Virus record (IMG/VR): IMGVR_UViG_3300037501_000255
Reading direction: 5' to 3' (one strand)
Source: a virus
Lineage: Duplodnaviria; Caudoviricetes
DNA: 64,000 nucleotides
The notes under the pieces are model-generated. The model did not search any database and was not told the origin of the DNA. It was given only the letters and a program-made list of their open reading frames with translations. Positions 1 to 15,770 of this stretch are shown piece by piece (within the stretch, counting starts at the first letter, position 1; every line of letters begins with the position of its first letter). The translations under genes and the position numbers were made by a program.

Positions 1-447
1 TGGCCCAGGGCTAGAGTCTGCAATGGTATCGAACAGTGCGAAGTGACGCTGATCGTCGCCAGCCTCACCAGAGATTCGACCGAAGGCGCGCATGGTGCCA
101 CCATCGACCGCACGATTCTCGACATTCCGATATCGACCCTCACGCTTGATCGGCGCACAGCGAGACTGGCGAATCTCGGATTCCATCCACTTCTGAATGG
201 AAGCGCGAATCCACTGCATCGCGAACGTGGGGAATGGACCTTTGGTGGGATCGAAGCGCTCAATCCCCCTGCACAGACCGAATACGCCCTCCTGAAAGGC
301 ATCCTCGTGCAGCTCCCTCGGGATACGCAAGAAGCGACGGATGACGAAGTGAATCAGGTTGTGATGATGAGCAATCAGCGCATTGCGCGTGGCATTGCAC
401 GGGTTGCCGAGATACTGAGTGAGGGCGTTGTCACGTTCAGTCGTCAT
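1..447 (-). CDS. Sigma-70 family RNA polymerase sigma factor (3' end runs off window)
   Basis: Not in ORF track. Hand translation from ATG at 447 (AAGGAG RBS): MTTERDNALTQYLG...RNALIAHHHNLIHFVIRRF...EDAFQEGVFGLCRGIERFDPTKGPFPTFAMQWIRASIQKW, matching sigma region 2 (DLxQEGxxGLxxAxExFDPxKG..F.TYAxxWIR). Confidence 0.88.
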   Translation of the reverse strand, partial: MTTERDNALTQYLGNPCNATRNALIAHHHNLIHFVIRRFLRIPRELHEDAFQEGVFGLCRGIERFDPTKGPFPTFAMQWIRASIQKWMESEIRQSRCAPIKREGRYRNVENRAVDGGTMRAFGRISGEAGDDQRHFALFDTIADSSPGP

Positions 448-617
448 TGCTGCTCTCCTTGGTGAGACGGATCATGGCCTTCGCCAATTGCCGCATCGCG
501 GTTTGCTGAAGTTCGCAACTCATGCGAACGCAATCCTCATCAGTCGCTTCGTCATTCAAGCGATAGATTTCCTCTTCCTTCACACTCTTCCATCAAAATC
601 TCTTCGAAAGATTTCAT
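437..617 (-). CDS. Small acidic hypothetical protein, apparently frameshifted
   Basis: GGAGG RBS + ATG at 617 (MKSFEEILM); acidic frame VKEEEIYRLNDEATDED...SSNDD* ends at 437 overlapping the sigma start; needs a 1-nt shift. Confidence 0.4.
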
Positions 618-631
618 GCTTACCTCCGTTG

Positions 632-661
632 TGGTGGGGCTTTTTCGGCTGACCCCAAGCC
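632..661 (-). ncRNA. H-type pseudoknot motif A, copy 1
   Basis: GGCUUGGGGUCAGCCGAAAAAGCCCCACCA: S1 GGCU/AGCC, S2 UGGGG/CCCCA, A-rich loop; 28/30 identical to copy at 2307-2336. Confidence 0.6.
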
Positions 662-670
662 TCGGCGATA

Positions 671-1096
671 CTAGCGAATCAGCCCGGTGGTGACAGGCGT
701 GACCGTCAGGGCGCTGCTGACCTTGCCGTTGCGCGTCTTGTTCGGCAGCTCTGCCAGCACCTTCTGGCGGAACTCTGCCTCGAATTCCTCAAGGCCGGAC
801 TGAGCAATCAGTGCAGACCTCATGTTGCGATCTGCCAGCACCACCTCATTGACCGCTTCGCGCATCACCTTGAGGAAGTGCGCGCGCTGCACACCCATCT
901 TCTTGAGAGCAAGGGCGACCGTGGGAATCAGCGGGATATCCACGGTGGGAGTGTAGGTCTCGTCAGCCGACACCGTGAGGGCTCCGCGCACCTCGATGGT
1001 GAACGGCTGCACCGTATGAGTGCCGGAAGTGATCTGGGTGCGGTCGGCCTTGACGGAGAGCTTCTCAAGGGCGAGCTTCTGGATTTCGGTGAGCAT
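671..1096 (-). CDS. Hypothetical protein
   Basis: 141 aa ORF with AGGAGG RBS, co-oriented in operon. Confidence 0.75.
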   Translation of the reverse strand: MLTEIQKLALEKLSVKADRTQITSGTHTVQPFTIEVRGALTVSADETYTPTVDIPLIPTVALALKKMGVQRAHFLKVMREAVNEVVLADRNMRSALIAQSGLEEFEAEFRQKVLAELPNKTRNGKVSSALTVTPVTTGLIR

Positions 1097-1120
1097 CGAT
1101 GCCTCCTGCAGTTGTCTGAG

Positions 1121-1183
1121 CGGACTGGCTCATCAGGCAGGGTAGTCCATGTCCCTGCGACGAGGCCGAAGCCTCGTTTCGCC
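1121..1183 (-). ncRNA. Hammerhead ribozyme, type II, with loop I/3'-tail pseudoknot
   Basis: GGC-GAAA-C-GAGGC-UUCG-GCCUC-GUC|GCAGGG-ACAUGGACUA-CCCUGC-CUGAUGA-GCC-AGUCCG: complete core (CUGAUGA, GAAA, GUC site), stems I-III all pair, loop GGACU pairs with tail AGUCC; cleavage between 1159 and 1158. Confidence 0.93.
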
Positions 1184-2242
1184 TCAGGCGAGTTCAAGCT
1201 CGCGCGAGCGCTTGGGTGCCTTGTACACGGCATCAGGTGCATCGGCGAGGAGGAAGTCCAGCGCCTTCTGATTCATCTTCTCCGCGACACCCCCACCGAA
1301 GAGGGCATCAAACTTGTTCGTGTCCGCACCCGACTGCTCGGTATTGCGGTAGTTGCGCTCGTGGGTGTTGTACTCGGTCACCGCATTGAGCAGAGCCCAG
1401 CGCGTACCAGTCACACCAGGGATGTGCGTTCCCTTGCCCATCATAGACAGGTGGAGAATCTCCTTCTGAATGTTCTCGGCACGAGTGACCGCCTTCGGAC
1501 CCTTGCCCTCCGTGGGGGCCATGGTCTCCAGGAAATCTCGGGTGTAGGCGGCATCCGCACGCAGACCGGCAAGCCACGTAGAGATCCGACGGAACTGCTC
1601 GGCTTCCTCCGAGGCCAGACCGAGAATCTCGCGCGCCTGCTGAATCTTGCGAGTCGGGTCACCAACGTGCTTGATGGTCACCCCATCCTCACCCGTGCGC
1701 AGGGCGAGGTTGAGTGTGTTCTGACACACGATGCGGACCGACGTGAACTTGCACTTCAACGAGTTATTGCCGTCGTGGCCGGTCGTGAGCATCAGGAACA
1801 TCTTGGTCTTATCACCAAGAATCGGCTCCAGCTCGTATCCATCACCAAGCAGCTGCGCCAGCAGCCAGATGCGCTTACCGCCATCGATCGAGCCGGCCGT
1901 CACGTAGCGCAGCTGACTAAGCTCGCCCACCGCCGAATCGAGGAAGTTGAATGCCTCGGAGTTCTGGATGGGAGTGTAGCGCTCGGTGCAGGTCCCGAGA
2001 ATCTTGTTGTCGCGATCTCGCACGATATGCAGGAGCTCCTCGCTCTTGAATACTCGACCGCCGATCTCGACAGCGGCCGGGTGGAGACCGACTCGCCAAT
2101 CGAGACCCGAGAGACGCACGGTCTCGGCAGCGCTCAGAGGGCTGGCACCACCATATCCGTAGAACTTCTCCGGATTCATGTGCCAGGGCATGTCCTTGGT
2201 GAAGTCACCAACCCACATCATCGATTCAACATTCGCGGCCAT
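1184..2242 (-). CDS. DUF932 / phage-plasmid LGT TIGR03299-type protein
   Basis: Motifs GSIDGGKRIW, LTTGHDG, TSVRIVCQNTL, GTRWALLNAVTEY. Confidence 0.9.
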   Translation of the reverse strand: MAANVESMMWVGDFTKDMPWHMNPEKFYGYGGASPLSAAETVRLSGLDWRVGLHPAAVEIGGRVFKSEELLHIVRDRDNKILGTCTERYTPIQNSEAFNFLDSAVGELSQLRYVTAGSIDGGKRIWLLAQLLGDGYELEPILGDKTKMFLMLTTGHDGNNSLKCKFTSVRIVCQNTLNLALRTGEDGVTIKHVGDPTRKIQQAREILGLASEEAEQFRRISTWLAGLRADAAYTRDFLETMAPTEGKGPKAVTRAENIQKEILHLSMMGKGTHIPGVTGTRWALLNAVTEYNTHERNYRNTEQSGADTNKFDALFGGGVAEKMNQKALDFLLADAPDAVYKAPKRSRELELA

Positions 2243-2306
2243 TGCGGACTCCTGACGGTAGCATCGCGGCTACTCGGTGTTGCCGGAGCCTATCCCGGCA
2301 TGGGGC

Positions 2307-2336
2307 TGGTGGGGCTTTTTTGGCTAACCCCAAGCC
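2307..2336 (-). ncRNA. H-type pseudoknot motif A, copy 2
   Basis: GGCUUGGGGUUAGCCAAAAAAGCCCCACCA, 7 nt after a UAG stop. Confidence 0.6.
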
Positions 2337-2343
2337 ACCATTT

Positions 2344-2844
2344 CTACTCTAGACCCATGACCTTGCGAGACATTCTGCGCAGGCGCTCGCCGATGAATTC
2401 AATATCTGCCTCAGAGAACGCCTCAGAGCACATGATGACCCAGAGGTTGTGCGTGCGGTCCGGCTCGAAGTATCGCTCCAATTCTCGATACCTCTGCGTT
2501 TTTGGATGGACCTTGGTGCCGACAATCAGCACATTCAGGTAGTTGCCGTGACCATATACTCGATCGCAGCGCTCCACGAGATGCGGGTCCAGCATGCGAG
2601 TGCGCTTCTGCTCGCTGTATGCTGCGCCGCAATTGATTTCCACATTGAGGAAGAAGCTGCGCCCATTCCGACGTGGGAGTGCGAACTGCAGGTCCATCCT
2701 ACGAGGGTGCCTTAGCTCACCGGGGTAGGTAACCTCCTCTCGGGTTTGGATTGCTGCAAGCACGGCACTCTCGCGCACTTGCGAAGGACGATGAATGAAG
2801 GGGCGCAGGCTTGTCGCAACAGATCGTTCGAGTCGTGTCAGCAT
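2344..2844 (-). CDS. Hypothetical protein (possible PD-(D/E)XK-like fold)
   Basis: 166 aa ORF; MDLQF...NVEIN spacing weakly resembles D..E-x-K. Confidence 0.6.
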   Translation of the reverse strand: MLTRLERSVATSLRPFIHRPSQVRESAVLAAIQTREEVTYPGELRHPRRMDLQFALPRRNGRSFFLNVEINCGAAYSEQKRTRMLDPHLVERCDRVYGHGNYLNVLIVGTKVHPKTQRYRELERYFEPDRTHNLWVIMCSEAFSEADIEFIGERLRRMSRKVMGLE

Positions 2845-3089
2845 GGCTCACCTCAGATGAGACCTTCGGTTGCGGACATCGGGGCGGGCGCCTTGACCTT
2901 ATCCTTCGGAGCTTTCTTCGTGAACACAGGATTATCGCGGTCAAAGAACCCAGCATCAACGCTAAGCTCAATCTCTGACCTTGAGAGCAATAATGAGGCT
3001 TTCGAGTTCGGGAACATTCTTCTTCTTGAGTACAATGCGACCCAGCATGGTTCGTCTCCATCGTATGCGTTACGGTATCAAACGAAGTA

Positions 3090-3173
3090 TGCAGGTGGCG
3101 GGACTCGAACCCGCACGGGTTTTCCCCACAGGAATCTAAATCCTGCGCGTGCTGCCAATTTCGCCACACCTGC
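3090..3173 (-). tRNA. trnL: tRNA-Leu (anticodon TAG), no encoded CCA
   Basis: GCAGGTG/CACCTGC acceptor stem, TGGCGAAATTGGCA D-arm, CAGGA-TTTAGAT-TCCTG anticodon arm, long variable arm, GGTTCGAGTCC T-arm. Confidence 0.95.
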
Positions 3174-3200
3174 ATGGAGGAGCTTACGCTCCTCTGGGAC

Positions 3201-3401
3201 TCAGTCGCCCCGGTACCTGCCGAACTCTGGTTCATCCTCATCATCCGCATCGACATCATCCATGTCTGCGGATACCAACTGGCCCGTTGCGGGGTCCACA
3301 GACAGGCCGGTATGAATGATGATTTCTGCCCCGTCCTCATCCACCATCCCATTCGGGAAATAGCGGCGAGCGAGGTCCTTCAGGTCTTTCACGGTTCTCA
3401 C
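3201..3401 (-). CDS. Small acidic hypothetical protein
   Basis: 66 aa ORF in tightly packed operon. Confidence 0.65.
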   Translation of the reverse strand: MRTVKDLKDLARRYFPNGMVDEDGAEIIIHTGLSVDPATGQLVSADMDDVDADDEDEPEFGRYRGD

Positions 3402-3408
3402 AGATTCC

Positions 3409-3636
3409 TCACTTCGGATTGTTCAGGCGATTCTTGATTGCTTCGATGGCTTCCACTCCCCACCGTGGGTTGCGGGCCACCGCATCTCGTGCATGATTCA
3501 GAGCTTCATTCATTGCCTCCAAGATGACATCTTCTGCTTCGCGAAATGCTTGCCTGTCACCATCGAGATGCAAGCGCTTGAGTAGCATGTGAGCGAACTG
3601 CTGAGGATCTTCGATGTCGCGGTCAGGTCGCTGCAT
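3409..3636 (-). CDS. Hypothetical protein
   Basis: MQRPDRD... start after GAGGAAG RBS, coupled to the ligase end. Confidence 0.65.
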   Translation of the reverse strand: MQRPDRDIEDPQQFAHMLLKRLHLDGDRQAFREAEDVILEAMNEALNHARDAVARNPRWGVEAIEAIKNRLNNPK

Positions 3637-4795
3637 TCTCTTCCTCCTTGTAGCGGTCACCCAGGACAGCGCGAACCTTGCTCTTAAAGAGCTTACAGAA
3701 TCCCGTGTCATTCATTTGCATGAATGCATTGTGGACCGTGTTGCTCTTGCCTGCACGAGTCGTGAACAGAGCTGCGGTGTAATCGAGCTTTCGGGCCTGA
3801 ATGGCGAGGGCGAATTCCTTCTGAGATTCAATCCATCGACACTCCTCGAACACCGCTTCATGCTGAGCGATGACGGACTGGATGATGTTCGACACTGCAT
3901 CCAAGTCATCCTTGTACTGCGGGAAATGCGTGGTAATTTCCTCGTAGTCATTCGACTTGGCGAGGAGAATCAGGTTGTTGATGCCCCGCAGACCGTCTTT
4001 GGCTCGGTGCAGCTGGACATACTGGTCGCTCTTGATCTTCACACGGTTGTAGTCGCCGTCACACGCCACGAAGCCCTCAAGCTCGGTGGCTGCATGCTTA
4101 TTGGCAAACTCTGCCACCTCCGCACCGCTGGCAAAGCGGTAACTCTTGGGAAGCGTGGCTCCATGACCGCAGACCTCAACCGCCTCTTCTTGCATGGTGC
4201 GGATGTTGCGGATGGCTAGCAGCTTGGCCGAAAATCCCTCATGGCGCACAACCACCATGTTGTGCTGGGAGCAGATCTCAAATGTCCAGGTTTCGTATGG
4301 CGGTTGCAGGTCCAGGGGAGAGGTTCCGTCCTCTCTCACGCCTACATTCCCCACACACCGATCAATCAACTCCTGCCAGGTGATGACCCCGGAGTTGACC
4401 GTATTGGTCCGCAGACCATCAGGCAGCTGGAACCGCGTCGAGTACTCGAACCGCTGGGTGTGAGGACTCCACCAGCGATTCACCATCGAGCCATCGATCT
4501 TCTCGTAGACCTTTGCAGTCCCCCAGTCGATTGGGGCAGCGTAGTGCTCGCCGAAGTTAAAGAACTTCGCCAGACCGAATGCGATGACATCGAAGGTTTT
4601 CGCATCCAGCACCAGCCCACGACACGCGTAACCGAAGGGCTCGGTCCACTTCACTGCCAACTGATCGTAGTCGAGAATGAGATGCAATCCATCGGACTTG
4701 CCACTGATGCCATGCTCAGCGTCGAACTGTTCGAGCGTTTTCCCTGAGCGCAGGTAGTCCTGCGTAGCTCGCAGGGCATCTTGGATGGTGAACAT
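3623..4795 (-). CDS. T4 Rnl1-like ATP-dependent RNA ligase
   Basis: Motif I YEKIDGS, ACRGLV, KFFN, TFEI, EGFV, RVKIKSDQY; start MFTIQ at 4795. Confidence 0.9.
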   Translation of the reverse strand: MFTIQDALRATQDYLRSGKTLEQFDAEHGISGKSDGLHLILDYDQLAVKWTEPFGYACRGLVLDAKTFDVIAFGLAKFFNFGEHYAAPIDWGTAKVYEKIDGSMVNRWWSPHTQRFEYSTRFQLPDGLRTNTVNSGVITWQELIDRCVGNVGVREDGTSPLDLQPPYETWTFEICSQHNMVVVRHEGFSAKLLAIRNIRTMQEEAVEVCGHGATLPKSYRFASGAEVAEFANKHAATELEGFVACDGDYNRVKIKSDQYVQLHRAKDGLRGINNLILLAKSNDYEEITTHFPQYKDDLDAVSNIIQSVIAQHEAVFEECRWIESQKEFALAIQARKLDYTAALFTTRAGKSNTVHNAFMQMNDTGFCKLFKSKVRAVLGDRYKEEENAAT

Positions 4796-4797
4796 TT

Positions 4798-4992
4798 CTA
4801 CCTCGGTTCCCAGTCGTTGCAGACTTGCACTTTCCTGCAACGCATGTTGTTATGAGTGCCATGACACTGCATCTCAGTAGAATGTGAGATGCAGCGCATG
4901 TTTGTATGCCACCAGTATGTGCCGCCGAAGATTGCCACTGTGATGGTAATCAGCAGTAGAACCACGCCGGCATTACTCAGTCGTTGCCTCAT
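4798..4992 (-). CDS. Small membrane protein with Cys-rich extracellular part
   Basis: MRQRLSNAGVVLLLITITVAIFGGTYWW TM helix followed by four Cys. Confidence 0.6.
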   Translation of the reverse strand: MRQRLSNAGVVLLLITITVAIFGGTYWWHTNMRCISHSTEMQCHGTHNNMRCRKVQVCNDWEPR

Positions 4993-5186
4993 CCGCCAGT
5001 CGAGCCGCCGGGCGTTCCGGACTTTCGATAACCTCGACGAGGGCGAGGTCGACGCCACCGATGCACTGGTAGCTCGTACCGCCATCGATAAACGTGCGGT
5101 TGGGGCGACAAGTCGTGGCGGTGTCGCGATTCCAGAACATCCAGACACTCCTTGCAGAGGATAATGTTGCGTGGTCTCTCACTCAT
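4973..5186 (-). pseudogene. Small phage Zn-binding protein (CxxC..ESxHRHD..CxC..IDGG family), frameshifted
   Basis: Frame 1 LCKECLDVLESRHRHD joins frame 2 CRPNRTFIDGGTSYQ; the usual FVxCxC segment is missing. Confidence 0.65.
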
Positions 5187-5319
5187 AACGAGGCCTCCGT
5201 GTGGTTTCTTCGGGAAACTCATCCTGTGTAGTACTTGACGAGCTTATCACCGTCAGGAACAGCCAGCGCCTCTTGTGCGATCTCGCTGAGGCTGGTCCGG
5301 CCAGGGTCGGGAATCTCAA

Positions 5320-5551
5320 TCATGCCAACGCCTCCCTCTTTTCTTTGGGAATCATATGTTCGCCCAGAGTCACATCTAGGAGAATGGCACGGGCCAGCGG
5401 GAAGGATGGATTCTTCTCGCAAGCATCAATGGCGCCCGTGCGTTTCAGGTAGGTCACCACCACTGTGGCGCCCATCCAGCGCGAGAGTGTCTGATGTCGA
5501 GTCTGCGCGTCTTTGGCTTCCATTTCAAAGCCCCATTCGGTTGATGAGCAT
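5320..5551 (-). CDS. Hypothetical protein (probable 1-nt homopolymer frameshift near 5525)
   Basis: AGGA RBS + ATG 5551 (MLINRMGL) joins ORF 5320-5523 if CTTTG is read as CTTG. Confidence 0.5.
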
Positions 5552-5557
5552 GTTATA

Positions 5558-5648
5558 TCCTGTTCGTAGGACTTCGGTCACCATCATTGCAGGCGACTGC
5601 GGCTACGCGATGTGGCTGCCGGCCCCATTGCCCAGGGGCCGTTTGGGT
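5558..5648 (-). ncRNA. Structured RNA motif B, copy 1 (pseudoknot + 3 hairpins, riboswitch-like)
   Basis: 91 nt, same length and loops as copy at 7712-7802, compensatory changes in two stems. Confidence 0.7.
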
Positions 5649-5894
5649 TCACTGTGGTGTACCGCACTCCCTCACGATGAGCGCATCACACTCCCTGCCC
5701 GGCTTCTTCTGGAAGCACTGCGTGCGATCCAGGAAGTCGCGAACGCACTGATCGCGCCTCATCCCCTCCACGCGAGTCTGCACCTCCGAGATGCCGCTGT
5801 ATGCGGCCTGTCCGACCTTGCGCGGATTTTGGAAGGCGAGCACGCCGAAAACTCCGATGACGATTCCGATGACGAGAGCAATGAACTTGTCCAT
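5649..5894 (-). CDS. Small membrane protein
   Basis: N-terminal TM helix, four Cys. Confidence 0.7.
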   Translation of the reverse strand: MDKFIALVIGIVIGVFGVLAFQNPRKVGQAAYSGISEVQTRVEGMRRDQCVRDFLDRTQCFQKKPGRECDALIVRECGTPQ

Positions 5895-5983
5895 ATTTCC
5901 TTCTCAGTCTGCCATGATGTCTGCGAAGAGTATCACCACGCCCCAGATGAACGTGGTGGTGGCAAAGAATGCTGCGATGTAAA

Positions 5984-6181
5984 TCATACCGAGTATTGCA
6001 TGCGATCCATGCGGTCGCGTGCCTCCAAGTATTCCAGCGTCACCACCTGAGTGAGCTGGTCGTTGCAGAGGTGGTCGAAATCATCGCCGAGACCCAGGAT
6101 GGAATTGCGGTCCTCGACCGGCGAATCATTCAGCGGGGTACCGTCAGGTTCGTGCATGTCGATGTTGATGAGCTTGTGCAT
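5984..6181 (-). CDS. Hypothetical protein
   Basis: 65 aa acidic ORF with GGAG RBS. Confidence 0.6.
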   Translation of the reverse strand: MHKLINIDMHEPDGTPLNDSPVEDRNSILGLGDDFDHLCNDQLTQVVTLEYLEARDRMDRMQYSV

Positions 6182-6386
6182 GATTCACTCCAGGTTGGTG
6201 GTTTTGGCGCCGTCCACAACGGACAAAGAACAGGGCACCATCTCACGCGCAACTTCTTCTGCGTAGTGTGTTGCTTACGGGGAGGTATGTTTCCGCCAGG
6301 ACTCCACACCATCCATAATGTCTTGCCCTGCTGCACACGCGGATGGGACACTTGCGCTCCTGCAAATCAGAGATCGTCCGTACGCA

Positions 6387-6821
6387 TCACTGCACCTCAC
6401 GAATGAACTTGCTGAGCTGCTCCTGCTCCAGCACACAGCCATTAGGGCTGCGGCTTGCGGAGAGCTGCGCGGCGGTCATCATCACCACACCGAAGTAGAT
6501 GTCACTGTCTACATCTAGGTCGTGGCTGCGCTGGGCCGCAACCTCAGCATGCGCCTTCTCGGCGAACCCATGCCAGTAAGTGTTGCCGTTGGGGTATTGT
6601 GTGCGGATCAGGAAGCATCCGCGCTCATCGGTTTGTGCGATCCTTTGGCTCATTTTCATTGTCCCTCGAAAGCGTTGACGGTCGGCGTAGTGCATCATGC
6701 TGCCGTCATGGCCCAGCACGAACACTACATCTAGAATCTGGTCTGCAGCGATGACCTCTCTCCCATGTTCACTTTTCTTGCGTGGATTTGGAAACGGCAC
6801 GCCGCAGTCGGCCGTGCTCAT
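6387..6821 (-). CDS. Hypothetical protein
   Basis: 144 aa ORF in operon. Confidence 0.6.
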   Translation of the reverse strand: MSTADCGVPFPNPRKKSEHGREVIAADQILDVVFVLGHDGSMMHYADRQRFRGTMKMSQRIAQTDERGCFLIRTQYPNGNTYWHGFAEKAHAEVAAQRSHDLDVDSDIYFGVVMMTAAQLSASRSPNGCVLEQEQLSKFIREVQ

Positions 6822-6961
6822 CCGAAGCTTCCAGCAACTTCCGACAGCAAATGTCCACCCAGGTTTTGTGCGAGAATGCTCGGCACTTCATGAAGGTCTT
6901 GCTTGCCTCCTCGAAATCCCTAAGTGCTTTGTTGAGCCGCTCTTCTGAGCGGGCGAGCGCA

Positions 6962-7264
6962 TCACTCATCATCATCCTCCTCGGGGAACAACTTGTCATC
7001 CTCCTCGGGGAACAACTTGTCCCATTCGGCAGGGGTCGTGCCGGTCATGATAAACTCACGCTCAGGTGGGGCGAGGAACGGAAATGCATCTTGTATGAGT
7101 GCACCGTTTACGTAGGACGAGATGGCCGTACACATCTTGCCGAAAGGATGGTCGAACACCATCTCCTTAGAGACGATCCCTGGGCCCATCAGGCTTCGAC
7201 CTTCGCGAACCACGATAGTGCGATCGGCGCCGTCGTGAAGCAGACGAAAAGTAGCAGGAAACAT
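6962..7264 (-). CDS. Conserved phage protein (LIQDAFPxL..EREFIxTG..WD motif)
   Basis: Start MFPATF after GGAGG; C-terminal KLFPEEDD twice. Confidence 0.75.
   Translation of the reverse strand: MFPATFRLLHDGADRTIVVREGRSLMGPGIVSKEMVFDHPFGKMCTAISSYVNGALIQDAFPFLAPPEREFIMTGTTPAEWDKLFPEEDDKLFPEEDDDE
6973..7021. repeat. 24-bp perfect tandem duplication
   Basis: catcctcctcggggaacaacttgt x2, encodes DKLFPEED x2. Confidence 0.9.
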
Positions 7265-7265
7265 C

Positions 7266-7706
7266 TCAGACCTCCTCGGGAAGTTGCACGGCCGAAGCCA
7301 TGCGCTTGATGCCTTCGAGCGGAACACCGTGCGTGTTGCGACGAGCGTACGTCTCGCACGCCTCGGGTGTGAACTCGCCCACCACCTCGAACACCACGTC
7401 GTACCCCATGGCACGAGCAAGCTTGATGTAGGGCTCGCGGTGCTCGGCACGGATGTTCGTGTTGTCCACGATCACCTGATCGACGCTGTCGGCGAGGGCG
7501 AGCGCGAACTTCTGGAAGTTCAGTGCGTGATTTTGCGTGAGCTTGCCCGGATTGAACCGGTAGACTCCGCCCTCCATGAAAAAGTCGTCCGTGGAACACA
7601 CCACGGTCCTAAGACCGAAATCCTCGCCCGCCTTGACCATCTTGGACACAGCAGTCGACTTGCCGGCGCCAGGAAGGCCGATCATAAGCACAGCAACCTT
7701 CGACAT
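7266..7706 (-). CDS. AAA_33 / polynucleotide-kinase-like P-loop kinase
   Basis: GLPGAGKST, STDDFF, VIVDNTN, RNTHGVP (N4BP2/PNK-type). Confidence 0.88.
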   Translation of the reverse strand: MSKVAVLMIGLPGAGKSTAVSKMVKAGEDFGLRTVVCSTDDFFMEGGVYRFNPGKLTQNHALNFQKFALALADSVDQVIVDNTNIRAEHREPYIKLARAMGYDVVFEVVGEFTPEACETYARRNTHGVPLEGIKRMASAVQLPEEV

Positions 7707-7711
7707 AGGAA

Positions 7712-7802
7712 CCCCGTTCGTGGGACTACGTTCCCCATCATTGCAGGGGAATACGGCTACATGATGTAGCTGCCGGCCCCATTACCCAGGGGCCGTTTGG
7801 GT
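7712..7802 (-). ncRNA. Structured RNA motif B, copy 2
   Basis: ACCCA-AAC-GGCCCC-UGGGU-AAU-GGGGCC pseudoknot, GCUAC/GUAGC, UUCCCC/GGGGAA, UCCC/GGGG hairpins. Confidence 0.7.
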
Positions 7803-8210
7803 TCACTTCTTGAGGATGGCGTCGAGCGGACGAGCGGCGGACCGGGCCTGCACCTCCTCGGCGCGCTGACGACGGACGAGGCTGATGGTCTGAGTCTTGA
7901 CCCAGCCGACGCACGGGGTGTTGAGGGGGAGGCGGATCGTGCGGGACTCCCCCTTGTCCATGGCATCCGGAACGGTGGTCACATCCGCGAAATTCATGTG
8001 CGGAATGACCCGCACGCACGCGATGGCACGGTGCCCGCCGCTGGGGAGCTGGACCACCGGACGGTCCGCCTCCGGGTCGTTGGCGGCGAACAAGACCGAG
8101 CTCAGGGGGCGGGTGAGGGGCTTGCCGCTGGTCTTATTCGCCGCCTCCTTCTGCTGCGTCTTGCTGATCTCGATGTGGCCGATGACGCGAGCGGTGTTGT
8201 TCTGGGACAT
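7803..8210 (-). CDS. Hypothetical protein
   Basis: Start MSQNN after AGGAG RBS. Confidence 0.7.
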   Translation of the reverse strand: MSQNNTARVIGHIEISKTQQKEAANKTSGKPLTRPLSSVLFAANDPEADRPVVQLPSGGHRAIACVRVIPHMNFADVTTVPDAMDKGESRTIRLPLNTPCVGWVKTQTISLVRRQRAEEVQARSAARPLDAILKK

Positions 8211-8250
8211 GTCTCTCTCCTGTATGCGCAAAGACCCTGCGCAAGGTGTT

Positions 8251-8324
8251 CCCGGACTTGGAACCGGGCTCCGGAGACTCTTTCCGGAGGGCCTTACTAA
8301 GAGTTCCCCCCTAGTCCTCGGTCA
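8251..8324 (-). ncRNA. Twister-like ribozyme candidate, copy 1
   Basis: GAG-GA/P1(GGAA loop)/UAA, P3, P4 CCCGG-UUCCAAGU-CCGGG; L4 UC pairs with GA after GAG. Confidence 0.6.
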
Positions 8325-8507
8325 ACGATCCCACGCCTTCCGACCACGCCGCTGGAACTTCCAATTACGCTGTTTTTCGCGGGTTTCGTCATCATATGCA
8401 TCCGCGAGGTTACGGGGGGTGCGCTTGCCACGCACGAACTCCCGAACCTCGGGCGCAGCGTTCTGAACCTTCTCGTTCTGGGACTTAGGACGACGCATCC
8501 AACCCAT
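8322..8507 (-). CDS. Small basic (Arg-rich) protein between the two twister-like RNAs
   Basis: 61 aa, RRPK..VRGKRTPRNLADAYDD, GGGAGA RBS. Confidence 0.7.
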   Translation of the reverse strand: MGWMRRPKSQNEKVQNAAPEVREFVRGKRTPRNLADAYDDETREKQRNWKFQRRGRKAWDR

Positions 8508-8557
8508 TGTCTTCTCCCAAATAAAAGGCCGTAAAATCTTGTTTTTGTTTATTTTTC

Positions 8558-8632
8558 CCGGGACTTGGGACCCGGCCCCTAAGAGTCTCCCAGGGGGGCC
8601 TTACTAGGGGTTTACCCCCTAGCCCTCGGTCA
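8558..8632 (-). ncRNA. Twister-like ribozyme candidate, copy 2
   Basis: GAG-GG/P1/UAA, P3, P4 CCGGG-UCCCAAGU-CCCGG; L4 CC pairs with GG after GAG (covaries with copy 1). Confidence 0.6.
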
Positions 8633-8818
8633 GCGGCGGGCCGGCAGGCCCACACCCAGACGCTCACGACGCCAGAAGAACCGGCGACGGATCGTCTCCT
8701 CGAACACGTCGGGCCGCTGGCCCTCGGGGACCGAGTAGGTCACACCCTCCACCGAGATCATGCCCTCGGACAGCGGCTTACAATCCTCGGTCCGACGGCG
8801 GATGAAGGTTGCGGTCAT
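8630..8818 (-). CDS. Hypothetical protein (first ORF of left arm)
   Basis: 62 aa ORF with AGGT RBS; stop overlaps twister-like copy 2. Confidence 0.6.
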   Translation of the reverse strand: MTATFIRRRTEDCKPLSEGMISVEGVTYSVPEGQRPDVFEETIRRRFFWRRERLGVGLPARR

Positions 8819-8829
8819 GTTGCACCTAT

Positions 8830-9555
8830 CTGCGTTCCCCCAGGGTTATCCCAGGGTCCTACGGCTTTAGACGTAGCTTAGGCCCATTAGTGCAATGCAC
8901 CGGCGTATCTCCTACTAGTCAGTCCCTCACCCTAAGGCATCCCCTAGGGTCAGTAGACACACCCCTACCGTGGACCGCTTCGGGCAGTCAAGCTAGTGTC
9001 ACACCCTTTCGGGCTAGCTTCCTTTTGTAGTGGCGTTTTCCTTTAGGTGCCAAAGGATGCGCGGTCACTTGTCTAGGCAGACAGACCGGCTCACACGCTA
9101 TGGCATCGGAGACTTGCCGGTGTCCCGATTAGCTTACTGTTTCGCTTTAGCCTTTACGTTTGGGAATAGATGGGGCTAGCTGGCAATTGGGTTAGGGAAG
9201 GAACCTAACCGCGTTGCTGCTTGCCCGGTTCGGCTAGGTAGCGTGGCCCGTATTGCCTCGCTTCCCTAACCCATCCTAACCCCTTTCGGTTAGGCGCTAG
9301 CTAGGGATCTCTCCCGTAAGCTAGTCGGGGCACCTTATTACGCCAGCCCTTTCGGACCGACTACGCACACGCCGCTTGCGCGGGATGCGTGGGGGATTCC
9401 GGGCTATCTAGACCCGCTCCTACCCTACTATACTTCCCTTTATGACCCGACCAGGTTAGTGAAACCGGATCTGATCCTATCGGGCTTGGGCCGTCCCGCT
9501 ACCGCGTTCCGCCCGTAGCGGTGTCACCCGCTAGCACCTTGTCATCGGCGCACCC
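8830..9555 (-). ncRNA. Large highly structured non-coding RNA (GOLLD/ROOL size class, unassigned)
   Basis: No long ORF; more than 12 hairpins including GNRA loops (GUCC-GAAA-GGGC, CCUAACC-GAAA-GG..GUUAGG, CCGC-GCAA-GCGG, GGGA-GAGA-UCCC, CCC-GAAA-GGG) and long-range GGGUUAGGGAAG/CUUCCCUAACCC. Confidence 0.65.
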
Positions 9556-9606
9556 TTTATTATGATTCAATCGGGTTAGTGAAAAGAGATCTAGATCTAG
9601 ATCTAG
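9436..9606 (-). promoter_or_regulatory. Duplicated promoter-like motif TTTCACTAACC-N8-TCATAA plus (GATCTA)3 palindromic array
   Basis: Two copies about 120 bp apart, each preceded by GATC-A/TAGATC; AGATCTAGATCTAGATCT at 9587-9604. Confidence 0.45.
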
Positions 9607-10228
9607 CGTACCTTATCGCACACATTCCTACATGTAGGAGGGGGTAGGGGGGTGTAGGTCCCACCGAGAATGCCTCCAAACTACCCAGTTACACTTTTTT
9701 CCACTCACAAACTCTATAGTATATCACTATCTTTTCTATAGTCTAGCGCTATCTAGGTACTGTGGGAGTCATCCGTAATTAAATCACACATATTTCCAAT
9801 AGCTTTCCCCTACCTTATACGGTTGCTCTCTTATATTAGCTACGTGGGCGGGTGGCTCTATGTGAAAAATACGGTTGGTCTAGGGATATGGGGGGGGGGG
9901 TGATGGTAGCTGTTGCGGGAGACCTGAGCCTATGCGTGAACGGTGGTATTGGGGCGGTTTTTGTCGTGATTTTAATAGGGCGGGAGATTCTGCTTTTCAG
10001 CTATATGATGATGTTATAATGGTGGGTTTGAATTCTTCCGGGGATTTGGTACGTGCCGGAGATTGTTATCCTATGGTGGGTATTTTTGTGTGTCATGGTA
10101 GTACTTTTTGTCAGGAATATTATCATGTTCAGCAGTGTGCAGCTGGATTCTATACGTAACACTTGGATGAGAGTGGGAGTATTATTTGGATTGAAGGCTA
10201 GGCTGGCCTAGATTTTGGTGGGAGGGGT

Positions 10229-11438
10229 ATGATATTGCGTTACGAGGATGGGTTAATTCGGGATATTTGGTCTGGGTCACGGACTTTGATTTTGTGGGAT
10301 TTATTAGAACGGTTGCATGTTGAAGCCCAGACTGGTTGGGCATTGGGGCAATTCGTTTGCGATTGGGATGCCTTTGGGGTTCGCAAGGCGGCTTTGGAGT
10401 TGGAAACCCGGCATGAATTTGTAGCGTTTTTGGGGCAATCGGTGAGGTAGAACATCCGGATCGTGAGTGGGTAGACCGCTACTACCATCGTAGGCTAACC
10501 TCTTCTGATATTTTAGATAGCGCGTTTTCGGTACAGATTACCGAGTCTGTGGTATATTTGCGGAGTTTGGTGGGCGGCTTACGCGATACTTTAAAAAATT
10601 TGGGAGATCGATTTCTATCGGCCGTTCGGGCGGGGCGTACTCATGGTCAGATAGCTGAAGCCACTTCTTTGGGTTGGACTTTTATAGTGCCAGATCGGAC
10701 GTTGGCGCTGAGCGTGCCGGAGTTGCCGTTAAAAGCTTCGGGTGCTACGGGCAGCTACAGCAATACCTCGTGGGAAACCGAACAGCGATTTGTGGAGTTG
10801 GTGAGTGCGCGGGTGGGTTTGCGATTCATCAGTGTTCCCAGTACGCAGGTGGTACACCGTGCGTATTATGCGCGAGTATTCAGTGAGTTAGCGGTACTCG
10901 CCTCGGTATTGGATGGCATAGCTACAGAGATGAGGCATTTGGCTATGCTGGGCTGGGCGAGGCGAGTCCTGGGTTTGGAGGCGGGCAGCGCGGTTCATCG
11001 GCTATGCCCCACAAAAATAATCCCGCAGTTTTCGAGAATATCACTGGATTATGCCGTTTGGTTCGCGGCTATATGTCTCCGGTTTTGGAGAATGTCGTAC
11101 TATGGGGCGAGCGCGACATTTCGCACTCTTCGGTTGAACGGGTTGTTTGGCCGGATGCCCTTCATGCACTGTGCACTGCGGTGGTACGACTAAACGTGGA
11201 GCTAGTACGTATGAATTGGAACGTAGACTTCATGCGTCAGGTGGTTGACGGGGCTCTTCGACAAGTTAATTCTAGCCGGGCACTTACACTGAACCGGGGA
11301 GCGATGGACTATCAGCGTGCCTATCGCGACGTACAATCTCGATGTAACGGCGATATGCCAGATGTGGTATTGGACTCTGTTCCCGTGCTAAACCTTGAAG
11401 ATCTTAAAAAGGCAGCGCGTAAAGCGCAAGGAGTATAA
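10229..11438 (+). CDS. purB: Adenylosuccinate lyase, split by two 1-nt frameshifts
   Basis: ETRHEFVAF, LTSSDILD, GRTHGQ, SGATG, STQV, GQRGSSAMPHKNNP signature, ERDISHSSVER across three frames; both shifts repaired by adding one G to a G-run. Confidence 0.88.
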
Positions 11439-11442
11439 GAAT

Positions 11443-11718
11443 ATGCTGGATCAGTGGCTTTTTACTTGCAATGGCGGTAGCAGACCGAGTGGTCCCAGTC
11501 GCTTTGTTGGCAGCTATATCGGGGATCGCGAGTCTGCTGTGGGTTGGATGAGCGATTACCTACGTAGTGGTAGTGAAAACCGGTACAATTTTGATGGCAC
11601 GGTAGACTATGCTTTTGAGCGAATTGTTATGAGTGAGATTGATTGGGCTGGCAATTTGGTCACAAGTGGCGTGTGGGCATGGCGCGATGGGGTATGGGAG
11701 TTTAGCGATGTTTTCTAA
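11443..11718 (+). CDS. Hypothetical protein
   Basis: AGGAG RBS, ATG 11443. Confidence 0.65.
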   Translation: MLDQWLFTCNGGSRPSGPSRFVGSYIGDRESAVGWMSDYLRSGSENRYNFDGTVDYAFERIVMSEIDWAGNLVTSGVWAWRDGVWEFSDVF

Positions 11719-11726
11719 TCGGTATT

Positions 11727-11975
11727 ATGCAAAATATCGTGTTGAGGGGGTTGCCGGAGCTGCCGTGGTGGAACCTGTTTAATTACGACGGGTGGGAAGG
11801 TGGATTGTGCTATTGGCGGGGAGAATCGCGTTGTGTGGTACGCACTTATAACCCCGAGAAATTTCTGGTGTACCTGAAGGAGGCTCTGGCTATGGCGCTG
11901 CTTACTTGTAGGCGGGAATTCCGAGGTAGTTTCCGGTATTTGCCGGGGTTTGAGTCGCTATTGCCAGACGGGTAG
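11727..11975 (+). CDS. Hypothetical protein
   Basis: 82 aa ORF in operon. Confidence 0.6.
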   Translation: MQNIVLRGLPELPWWNLFNYDGWEGGLCYWRGESRCVVRTYNPEKFLVYLKEALAMALLTCRREFRGSFRYLPGFESLLPDG

Positions 11976-12280
11976 CGACCGGCGTATAGCGAAAGTGCTA
12001 TGCGGCACGAAATTTAACTCACTTTTACCAAACAAATACTGAGATGGTAACGACACAGTAGGCTGGCATTCTGATGATGAGCGTTCTCTAGGAGTTTAGC
12101 CAATAATTGCAAGCCTCGGCTTTGGAGTCGCATGTGACTTCTATATAAGACATAAGTATAAGTGCAGTTATCTGAAATTAAAGCTAAATTCTGGCAGCAC
12201 TCGGTTCCTAGAAGAAAAGCAGTAGATGAAGCGCGAATAAATTTAACATTTAGAAATATAGTAGAAATATAGGAGACGAT

Positions 12281-15161: not shown

Positions 15162-15770
15162 ATGTATAATGTTATTGGCGATATAGCTGGACAGTTCAAG
15201 ACTCTACAGGCTCTAATAGCCAAAATGCCGCAGGGCACTGTGTTGAGCGTAGGCGATATGATTGATCGCGGCCCTCGAAGCAATGAGGTTGTGGAATTTT
15301 TTATGAATGGAGGTGGGGAGGCGCTTCGTGGCAATCACGAAGATCTCTGCCTGGAATTCTATAGGCCTACTGGCAGGTATCACCCTACAGATTGGCACTG
15401 GAATGGTGGAGATGCCACCGAACGCGCATGGGGCGGACGAGTACCAGACGTCGCGCTGGACTGGATGGCATCGCGTCCCTTATACAAGGAGATTGAGGCC
15501 GACGGCAAACGCTTCTTCGTAAGCCATGCATTCGTACGCTGGGATCGCGGTGGGCTGACCGCACGCGAGGAAACGTTGATGTGGAATCGCTCTATACCCG
15601 TAGCAAATCCTGCGTACGATTTACAGATCTGCGGTCACAATTCACAATTCGGATTGCAGTACTGGGGAAATCCCGCCTATGCAGTTTGCATAGATACTAG
15701 CCGCAATAACGTACTGACCGGTATTCGCCTACCAAGTGGGAAAATCTATGAACAAGCGTATATCGATTAA
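15162..15770 (+). CDS. Calcineurin-like metallophosphoesterase (PrpA/NinI-type)
   Basis: GDIAG (H to A variant of GDxHG), GDMIDRGP, RGNHE, SHA, CGHN. Confidence 0.88.
   Translation: MYNVIGDIAGQFKTLQALIAKMPQGTVLSVGDMIDRGPRSNEVVEFFMNGGGEALRGNHEDLCLEFYRPTGRYHPTDWHWNGGDATERAWGGRVPDVALDWMASRPLYKEIEADGKRFFVSHAFVRWDRGGLTAREETLMWNRSIPVANPAYDLQICGHNSQFGLQYWGNPAYAVCIDTSRNNVLTGIRLPSGKIYEQAYID

Follow-up and report, generated by a model that had tools for sequence, protein, structure and literature searches.

Does a phage that sets self-cleaving ribozymes between the genes of one operon, and that encodes an RNA ligase and a kinase in the same operon, cut its polycistronic RNA only, or cut it and rejoin the pieces? 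The question is raised by the window analysed here, the whole stretch of 64,000 nt of the IMG/VR virus record IMGVR_UViG_3300037501_000255 (Duplodnaviria; Caudoviricetes), in which a GC-rich arm (about 400–9750) reads almost wholly on the minus strand. The arm is best explained as one long early or accessory unit that is processed by ribozymes, with the RNA-repair genes as ordinary cargo and not as a means of rejoining the mRNA (probability roughly 0.6). The layout itself has been known since 2011; new are a twister variant, a swap of ribozyme class at one gene junction, two motifs that stand in ribozyme slots and have no Rfam family, and a conserved 600-nt leader.

Known ribozymes at the gene junctions

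Positions 1–12000 were scanned with Rfam by E-value (gathering scores: Hammerhead_II, 37 bits; Twister-P5, 37.6 bits), and three known ribozymes were obtained:

1119–1184, minus strand: type II hammerhead (RF02276), 33.0 bits, E 0.0014; predicted cut between 1159 and 1158; loop I pairs with the 3' tail in a pseudoknot.
8559–8630, minus strand: variant type-P5 twister 1 (RF02684), 36.4 bits, E 1e-4; predicted cut between 8603 and 8602.
8252–8322, minus strand: variant type-P5 twister 2 (RF02684), 30.6 bits, E 0.004; predicted cut between 8296 and 8295.

The same scan of 12001–64000 gave nothing at E < 0.1, so the ribozymes are confined to the arm; at the Rfam gathering thresholds, the tRNA-Leu at 3089–3174 was the sole match in the whole window.

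A DNA search of public phage genomes found no close relative. Relatives L002–L010 were collected through homologues of the gene that precedes the hammerhead, and L028–L035 were added by a metagenome pattern scan for motif A (see below):

1184–2242, minus strand: DUF932 protein, 352 aa (PF06067, E 6e-45); homologues 62–88% identical; anchor gene for the relatives.

The same layout was found in at least ten related metagenomic phage contigs, individual genes being missing in some. The shared order is: leader RNA; small open reading frames (ORFs), each followed by a twister; motif B and motif A; kinase; motif A; Rnl1-type ligase; tRNA; motif B leader and DUF932 gene; hammerhead; ORF of 141 aa; sigma factor.

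The hammerhead core (CGAAAC, the GUC cleavage triplet and CUGAUGA) is all in place in the window and is kept in six of the seven aligned copies; the architecture is that of type II, with stems I and III loop-closed, stem II open and loop I paired with the 3' tail. Stems I and III covary among the relatives, and the 5-bp pseudoknot GGACU/AGUCC is replaced by GGGCU/AGCCC in L007 and L002. Orthologues in L006, L009 and L010 scored 37.6–37.9 bits, at or above the gathering score, and lie exactly at the stop codon of the DUF932 gene.

In the Rfam alignment both twisters possess P1, P2, P4, the UAA cleavage-site loop and an L4 with CCAAG for the pseudoknot T1. Over more than 20 copies, P1, P3 and P4 covary and L4 (GGUYCCAAGYCC) is invariant; the differences between twister 2 and twister 1 of the window are compensatory. 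The relatives' twisters scored 29–37.2 bits, occur as pairs in L003 and L008, and coexist in L034 and L008 with the canonical subtype. Six twisters follow one another in L034 (3990–6160). Each is fused to a small ORF at the latter's stop codon, and one has canonical P2/T2; three are identical in sequence, which suggests a recent duplication of ORF-plus-twister units.

The placement is as regular as the folds are. Structured elements of the window begin at a stop codon or 1–9 nt past one; every ribozyme has the upstream ORF's stop codon fused to its 5' edge (UGA-CCGAGG..., UGA-GGCGAAAC...). Upstream ORFs thus end right at the ribozyme, and each downstream cistron has a Shine-Dalgarno sequence and an AUG of its own. 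At the junction after the DUF932 gene, a complete twister stands in L004 (1296–1375) versus a hammerhead in the window and six relatives. Of all the observations, this exchange of class between orthologous junctions speaks most strongly for cleavage as the selected function at that place. The gene caller set an ORF start inside the L004 twister.

With three known ribozymes that are intact and kept at gene junctions, the sequence gives good support to cleavage of the polycistronic RNA at these points. The original prediction had placed one hammerhead, two twister-like RNAs, two copies each of motifs A and B and a large non-coding RNA on one minus-strand arm; the Rfam scan, a repeat search and the conservation in relatives bear this out, and the 5' ends that it had proposed from reading the sequence (1158, 8295 and 8602) agree with the predicted cuts.

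Motifs A and B and the leader RNA

Beside the known ribozymes, the arm contains structured RNAs of three further kinds:

5555–5650, minus strand: motif A, copy 1; model score 99 bits; followed by a mini-ORF of 8 codons and an ORF of 67 aa.
7709–7804, minus strand: motif A, copy 2; model score 109 bits; four hairpins and a 5' pseudoknot; upstream of the kinase gene, its end 2 nt from that gene's start codon.
632–661, minus strand: motif B, copy 1; H-type pseudoknot with an A-rich third loop.
2250–2336, minus strand: motif B, copy 2 (pseudoknot at 2307–2336), with two conserved hairpins; leader of the DUF932 gene.
8840–9480, minus strand: structured leader RNA of about 600 nt; no minus-strand ORF of at least 40 aa; no Rfam match.

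Motif A (96 nt, four hairpins) was aligned by the repeat search as 5559–5653 with 7713–7807 (87% identical). To its model, R1, 16 copies were fitted, 14 of them distinct: 90.9% of the cells were paired, versus 71.7% after shuffling and 32–55% in slid controls; two-sided change was observed in 15 of 22 pairs, and none of 500 shuffles was as good. Some copies carry a covarying 5' pseudoknot (CCCA/UGGG to CCUG/CAGG). Hardly any variation is found in the linkers and in two loops, UGCAAUGAU and ACGAAC; the final helix and the Shine-Dalgarno sequence overlap, and the distance from the end of the motif to the AUG is always 6–10 nt. An Rfam scan of motif A alone with lax filters gave no family, and two pattern scans of IMG/VR gave no match; motif A was found in this phage clade only. 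Among candidate identities, HDV-like, hatchet (PMC6561176) and pistol ribozymes were fitted by eye and discarded, the order of helices being unsuitable; a riboswitch was given up as the leading idea, the downstream genes being different (kinase, L12-like gene, various small ORFs).

Motif B is a compact H-type pseudoknot of 30 nt with the order GGCU, U, GGGG, UU, AGCC, A-rich loop, CCCC; the repeat search gave 93% identity between 632–661 and 2307–2336. Covariation is thin (two-sided change in two of eight pairs). As a degenerate pattern, its sequence GGCUUGGGGUUAGCCNAAAAAGCCC was found in 17 IMG/VR contigs (L011–L027). These represent 10 distinct phages, 41–57% in G+C, whose flanking genes are unrelated. 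No match was obtained in 185,579 genomes of bacteria and archaea; the motif looks specific to free phage genomes, as far as these pattern searches reach. Six of the unrelated phage records were scanned with Rfam, and in three a ribozyme lies on the same strand within 1–2.2 kb of motif B (pistol, 58.8 bits; twister-P5, 51.8 bits; hammerhead, 30.7 bits, below threshold). A lax-filter Rfam scan of motif B alone gave noise only and no family, and a literature search for its sequence found no paper. A stimulator of stop-codon readthrough or frameshifting was rejected: the distance to the stop codon is not constant (6–15 nt), this codon can be any of the three, and the frames opened by readthrough are short and not conserved. 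The case for a mimic of a tRNA acceptor end (NCCA) is weak, as about half of the copies lack (A/G)CCA.

Between motif B and the start codon of the DUF932 gene, two covarying hairpins (GCYGG-GAUAGGCU-CCRGC and GUAGC...GCUAC) are found in the window (2250–2306), L002 (4614–4672) and L006 (6796–6857); in L002, a tRNA with an encoded CCA stands in place of the pseudoknot of this leader. The slot 3' of the 141-aa ORF is occupied by motif B in the window and in L003 and by other structured elements in relatives (L002, 6501–6568; L006, 8433–8525; L008, 11854–11929; L009, 12048–12142), for which Rfam scans gave no match; those of L002 and L006 share a hairpin followed by CUGCCA...UGAUAC...GGGAG.

Conserved, without an Rfam family and placed in ribozyme slots, the two motifs are concrete candidates for new classes of ribozymes or of RNA processing. 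The stronger proposal, that motif A, motif B or both are undescribed self-cleaving ribozymes, is compatible with the favoured explanation and is held to be doubtful, while being the best of the alternatives. Both motifs share the position of the known ribozymes, between a stop codon and the next ribosome-binding site, and neither has a family in Rfam; the slot upstream of the kinase gene is filled by motif A in seven contigs and by a twister in L007. Motif A has invariant unpaired nucleotides between covarying helices, like the cores of ribozymes, but a final helix over the Shine-Dalgarno sequence would suit a translational operator or a stabiliser equally well. For motif B, the proximity to pistol, twister and hammerhead ribozymes in unrelated phages and the absence from bacterial genomes are to be set against the very small size (30 nt), the weak covariation (the two of eight pairs given above), an apparent invariance that comes partly from the search pattern, and the plain hairpin elements that take its slot in relatives. 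It was through the same kind of association that Weinberg et al. reportedly discovered pistol, hatchet and twister-sister in 2015.

The leader RNA was recovered in L003 (120–720; 68% identical) and in L034 (3060–3700; 72%) and contains long-range helices; out of 169 predicted pairs, 45 keep pairing via two-sided changes, a count that is based on three sequences only. A direct repeat of 33 nt (9440–9472 and 9560–9592; 76% identical, 120 nt apart) is located at the leader start and shortly before it, and a segment resembling it is present at the leader start in L003; the repeat could be a tandem promoter or a protein-binding box.

RNA-repair enzymes and the fate of the predicted ribozyme ends

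Two enzymes of RNA repair are encoded in the operon, and a candidate for a third is found on the opposite arm:

3623–4795, minus strand: Rnl1-type RNA ligase, 390 aa from the ATG at 4795; PF09511, E 1e-8; phrog_562, E 9e-38; T4 Rnl1 (2C5U).
7266–7706, minus strand: P-loop polynucleotide-kinase-like protein, 146 aa; PF13671, E 2e-15; phrog_505; T4 Pnk (1LY1), E 9e-6.
15162–15770, plus strand: lambda-phosphatase-like metallophosphoesterase; PF00149; 1G5B, E 3e-7; on the opposite arm; candidate 3'-end healing enzyme.

The ligase scored 35.7 bits with PF09511 (cut-off 28.3), and its KIDGS, EGFVA and KIKSD align to motifs I (KxDG), IV (EGxVA) and V (KxKxD) of T4 Rnl1. It covers the PHROG profile up to position 360 of 377, and the match to the PDB sequence ends at residue 264 of T4 Rnl1. 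The predicted structure is poor overall (pLDDT 54), its C-terminal 120 residues being helical (pLDDT 85–93); the whole model gave a weak Foldseek match to 5TT6 (E 0.009, TM 0.25), and with a model of this quality the fold search is only suggestive. The kinase has the P-loop GLPGAGKST; among solved structures, 1LY1 and 1LTQ are closest to it (E 9e-6, residues 4–138). No HAD-type 3'-phosphatase domain is fused to it; with 146 aa and a match to the kinase half of 1LTQ only, it is a stand-alone kinase and not a bifunctional Pnkp. The metallophosphoesterase shares 27% identity with one in L003 that is encoded immediately after the kinase. In L001, a distant viral contig, the genes of ligase and kinase are neighbours; a ligase pattern search of IMG/VR gave one distant locus only. 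In the remaining ORFs of the arm no significant Pfam match was obtained, and no second ligase, 2H phosphoesterase or RtcB was seen.

The matches to PF09511, PF13671 and the T4 proteins uphold the ligase and the kinase that had been assigned at first from the sequence; the metallophosphoesterase that had been suggested as the 3'-phosphatase is confirmed in its family (PF00149, 1G5B) and is a candidate as to its role in 3'-end healing. Judged by their families, the three enzymes together could heal and seal ribozyme ends.

In the favoured explanation, RNAs that are present, conserved and covarying and enzymes of established identity are combined as follows. The primary transcript would begin with the structured leader of about 600 nt, and the RNA modules right after stop codons would divide it into separately stable and separately translated messages. 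The two twisters and the hammerhead would cut themselves, probably co-transcriptionally; cleavage in vivo and a stabilising role are what we infer. The upstream message would keep a tail of 25–27 nt that ends in a hairpin and a 2',3'-cyclic phosphate, and the downstream message would begin with a 5'-OH, after which come ribozyme hairpins and the message's own ribosome-binding site. Processing would also take place at the tRNA-Leu; motifs A and B, being in the same slots, most likely serve either for processing as well or for the protection of ends. The genes of ligase, kinase and metallophosphoesterase would be operon cargo, and the enzymes belong to the standard heal-and-seal pathway of T4 and jumbo phages; their likeliest substrates would be tRNAs or stable RNAs that are broken by host nucleases or in phage tRNA-intron processing, and not the ribozyme-cut mRNAs. 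Both halves have precedents: publications on clustered ribozymes that flank phage genes, interpreted as a means of cutting the transcript into single-gene mRNAs, go back to 2011 (PMC3088659; PMC6765202), and jumbo phages commonly possess, as a kit against host tRNA nucleases, Rnl1, a polynucleotide kinase, a phosphoesterase that is calcineurin-like in some, numerous tRNAs and Ro60 (PMC7824862).

Several observations count against this explanation. All three ribozymes of the window score slightly under the Rfam gathering thresholds. The window twisters have no canonical 4-bp P2, which is reduced to CC/GG and an A-C mismatch, and no canonical GC/GC T2, GU being found in L4 where the consensus is GC; one report (PMC11662667) contains the statement that natural twisters tolerate such imperfections. 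In most contigs of the clade, ligase and kinase stay inside the ribozyme-rich operon and motif A or a twister directly precedes the kinase gene, so that a functional link between enzymes and ribozymes is possible. The presumed role in tRNA repair is taken solely from family membership, and the C-terminal domain of the ligase is not reliably matched to that of T4 Rnl1. It is the all-helical C-terminal domain that gives T4 Rnl1 its tRNA specificity.

Ends with 5'-OH and cyclic phosphate shield RNA from 5'-monophosphate-dependent RNases and from 3' exonucleases. The kinase and the esterase might accordingly act as a timer of decay: healing of the ends would let these host enzymes clear the RNAs after the early phase, the ligase being uninvolved. 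In its favour, eight contigs have motif A or a twister in front of the kinase gene; the enzyme, in contrast to T4 Pnkp, has no phosphatase fused to it; and 21 kb of L007 contain a kinase gene and no ligase gene. The proposal is purely inferential, and the kinase accompanies Rnl1 in L001 and in most relatives, as expected of a repair pair; it is considered improbable.

There remains the idea with which the analysis of this locus began, that the phage kinase, phosphoesterase and Rnl1 act on the ends left by the ribozymes (possibly also by motifs A and B) and circularise or rejoin pieces of the early transcript. If true, it would be a virus-encoded, programmed RNA cut-and-paste system in bacteria. 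All three activities needed are encoded, and in most clade contigs kinase and ligase share the operon with the ribozymes; this co-occurrence within the clade is conserved synteny and is not independent evidence. The excised piece 8602–8296 would hold the 5' strand of P2, P3 and P4 of twister 1 and the 3' strand of P2 and P1 of twister 2; since the contacts between fragments (P2, T1) are alike in both twisters, a hybrid twister fold could hold its ends close to each other. Viroids and retrozymes provide a precedent, and hammerhead-cut viroid RNAs are circularised by plant tRNA ligase (PMC6765202).

Nothing in the coding sequence calls for rejoining. Every cistron is complete, from its Shine-Dalgarno sequence and start codon to its stop codon, and has no need of it; the length of the excised piece, 307 nt, is not divisible by three and the piece includes a stop codon, which leaves neither an endless frame nor exon joining. 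In the type-P5 and type-II permutations the two products would share a few base pairs only, and a hold of 2–3 bp of P2 and a short pseudoknot would favour release. The relative L007 keeps the kinase, two twisters and the hammerhead, yet no Rnl1 gene lies within its 21 kb of sequence. Co-occurrence of ribozymes with rnl1, proposed at the outset as a check, was not found beyond shared descent: PF09511 was absent from all ten unrelated phage records with motif B (three with known ribozymes, four rated complete), in a search that recovered its positive control. That ribozymes might give rise to spliced or circular phage RNAs was already proposed in 2011; such products were then sought from clustered phage hammerheads, and none were found (Perreault et al. 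2011, PMC3088659). Of the original prediction, self-cleavage therefore stands on intact, conserved and covarying ribozymes, while no link of the enzymes to ribozyme products was found for rejoining or circularisation, which is very improbable and ranks last among the alternatives. With heal-and-seal enzymes in the same operon, repair or rejoining of ribozyme ends is directly testable.

The rest of the arm and comparison with known systems

The other features of the arm are as follows:

9718–9745, minus strand: promoter candidate of sigma-70-like sequence (TAGACT, 16 nt, TATACT, with TG), at the head of the arm; consensus match only, 9 such sites being found versus 5.1 expected.
8630–8818, minus strand: first cistron, an ORF of 62 aa with its stop codon right next to twister 1; partial homologue in L008.
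8322–8507, minus strand: ORF of 61 aa, rich in Arg and Lys, between both twisters; homologues in L034, L035, L033, L031 and L007.
7803–8231, minus strand: ORF of 142 aa, likely start ATG 8210; a twister follows its homologue in five relatives.
5320–5523, minus strand: ORF of 67 aa, preceded by the mini-ORF after motif A copy 1.
3089–3174, minus strand: tRNA-Leu, anticodon UAG, inside the operon; a tRNA stands at the same place in L002 and L006.
671–1096, minus strand: ORF of 141 aa, kept in all relatives.
1–447, minus strand: gene of a sigma-70-family factor (PF04542, E 5e-14), running past the window edge; its downstream position is conserved in relatives.

The sigma-factor gene marks the arm as an early or regulatory unit. 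The G+C content of the first 10 kb is 55–59%, versus about 45% in the rest of the window (1–9900 versus 10000–64000), and that of the relatives' arms is 50–62%. Inside an ORF, a perfect tandem duplication of 24 nt (6972–7019) encodes a repeated acidic tail, (E)EDDKLFP. A gene similar to that of ribosomal protein L7/L12 is present in the operon of two relatives, directly after a motif A copy in L002 (95–511) and directly before a type-P1 twister (58.6 bits) in L007 (1146–1619).

The purpose of small self-cleaving ribozymes in bacteria and phages is an open question (PMC6765202). With up to six serial twisters and a class swap that points to cleavage as the selected function, the clade is an unusually rich natural experiment on it.

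Among known systems, the clusters of Perreault et al. 2011 (PMC3088659; PMC6765202) are the nearest: there, too, several small ribozymes of more than one class lie between consecutive genes of one phage unit, the type II hammerheads have the loop I/3'-tail pseudoknot, and processing into single-gene mRNAs was proposed. The present case differs from them in being a jumbo phage, in the arrays of up to six twisters in relatives, in the sub-threshold twister variant with a stop codon fused to its 5' edge, in two unclassified RNA motifs and a 600-nt leader within the operon, and in the RNA-repair genes carried as cargo.

With T4 Pnkp/Rnl1 and the jumbo-phage toolkit (Iyer et al. 2021, PMC7824862) the locus shares an Rnl1 with the catalytic lysine motif, a P-loop kinase, a separate phosphoesterase and tRNA genes nearby; unlike T4, the kinase is without a HAD phosphatase, the candidate for that step is a separate calcineurin-type, lambda-phosphatase-like protein, and the genes are part of an operon punctuated by ribozymes. 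The Pnkp of Clostridium thermocellum unites kinase, calcineurin-type phosphoesterase and ligase in one protein. The same three activities, with a metallophosphoesterase as healer of 2',3'-ends, are divided here among three separate genes, the ligase is of the Rnl1 type, and no Hen1 partner was seen.

Viroids and retrozymes (PMC6765202) resemble the locus in their products with 5'-OH and 2',3'-cyclic phosphate, predicted from sequence in the present case, and in the set of kinase, phosphoesterase and Rnl1-like ligase. They are replicating RNAs, either non-coding or of retroelements, whose tandem multimers contain identical ribozymes, whereas the phage units, known from sequence, are ordinary cistrons with different ribozymes at each end.

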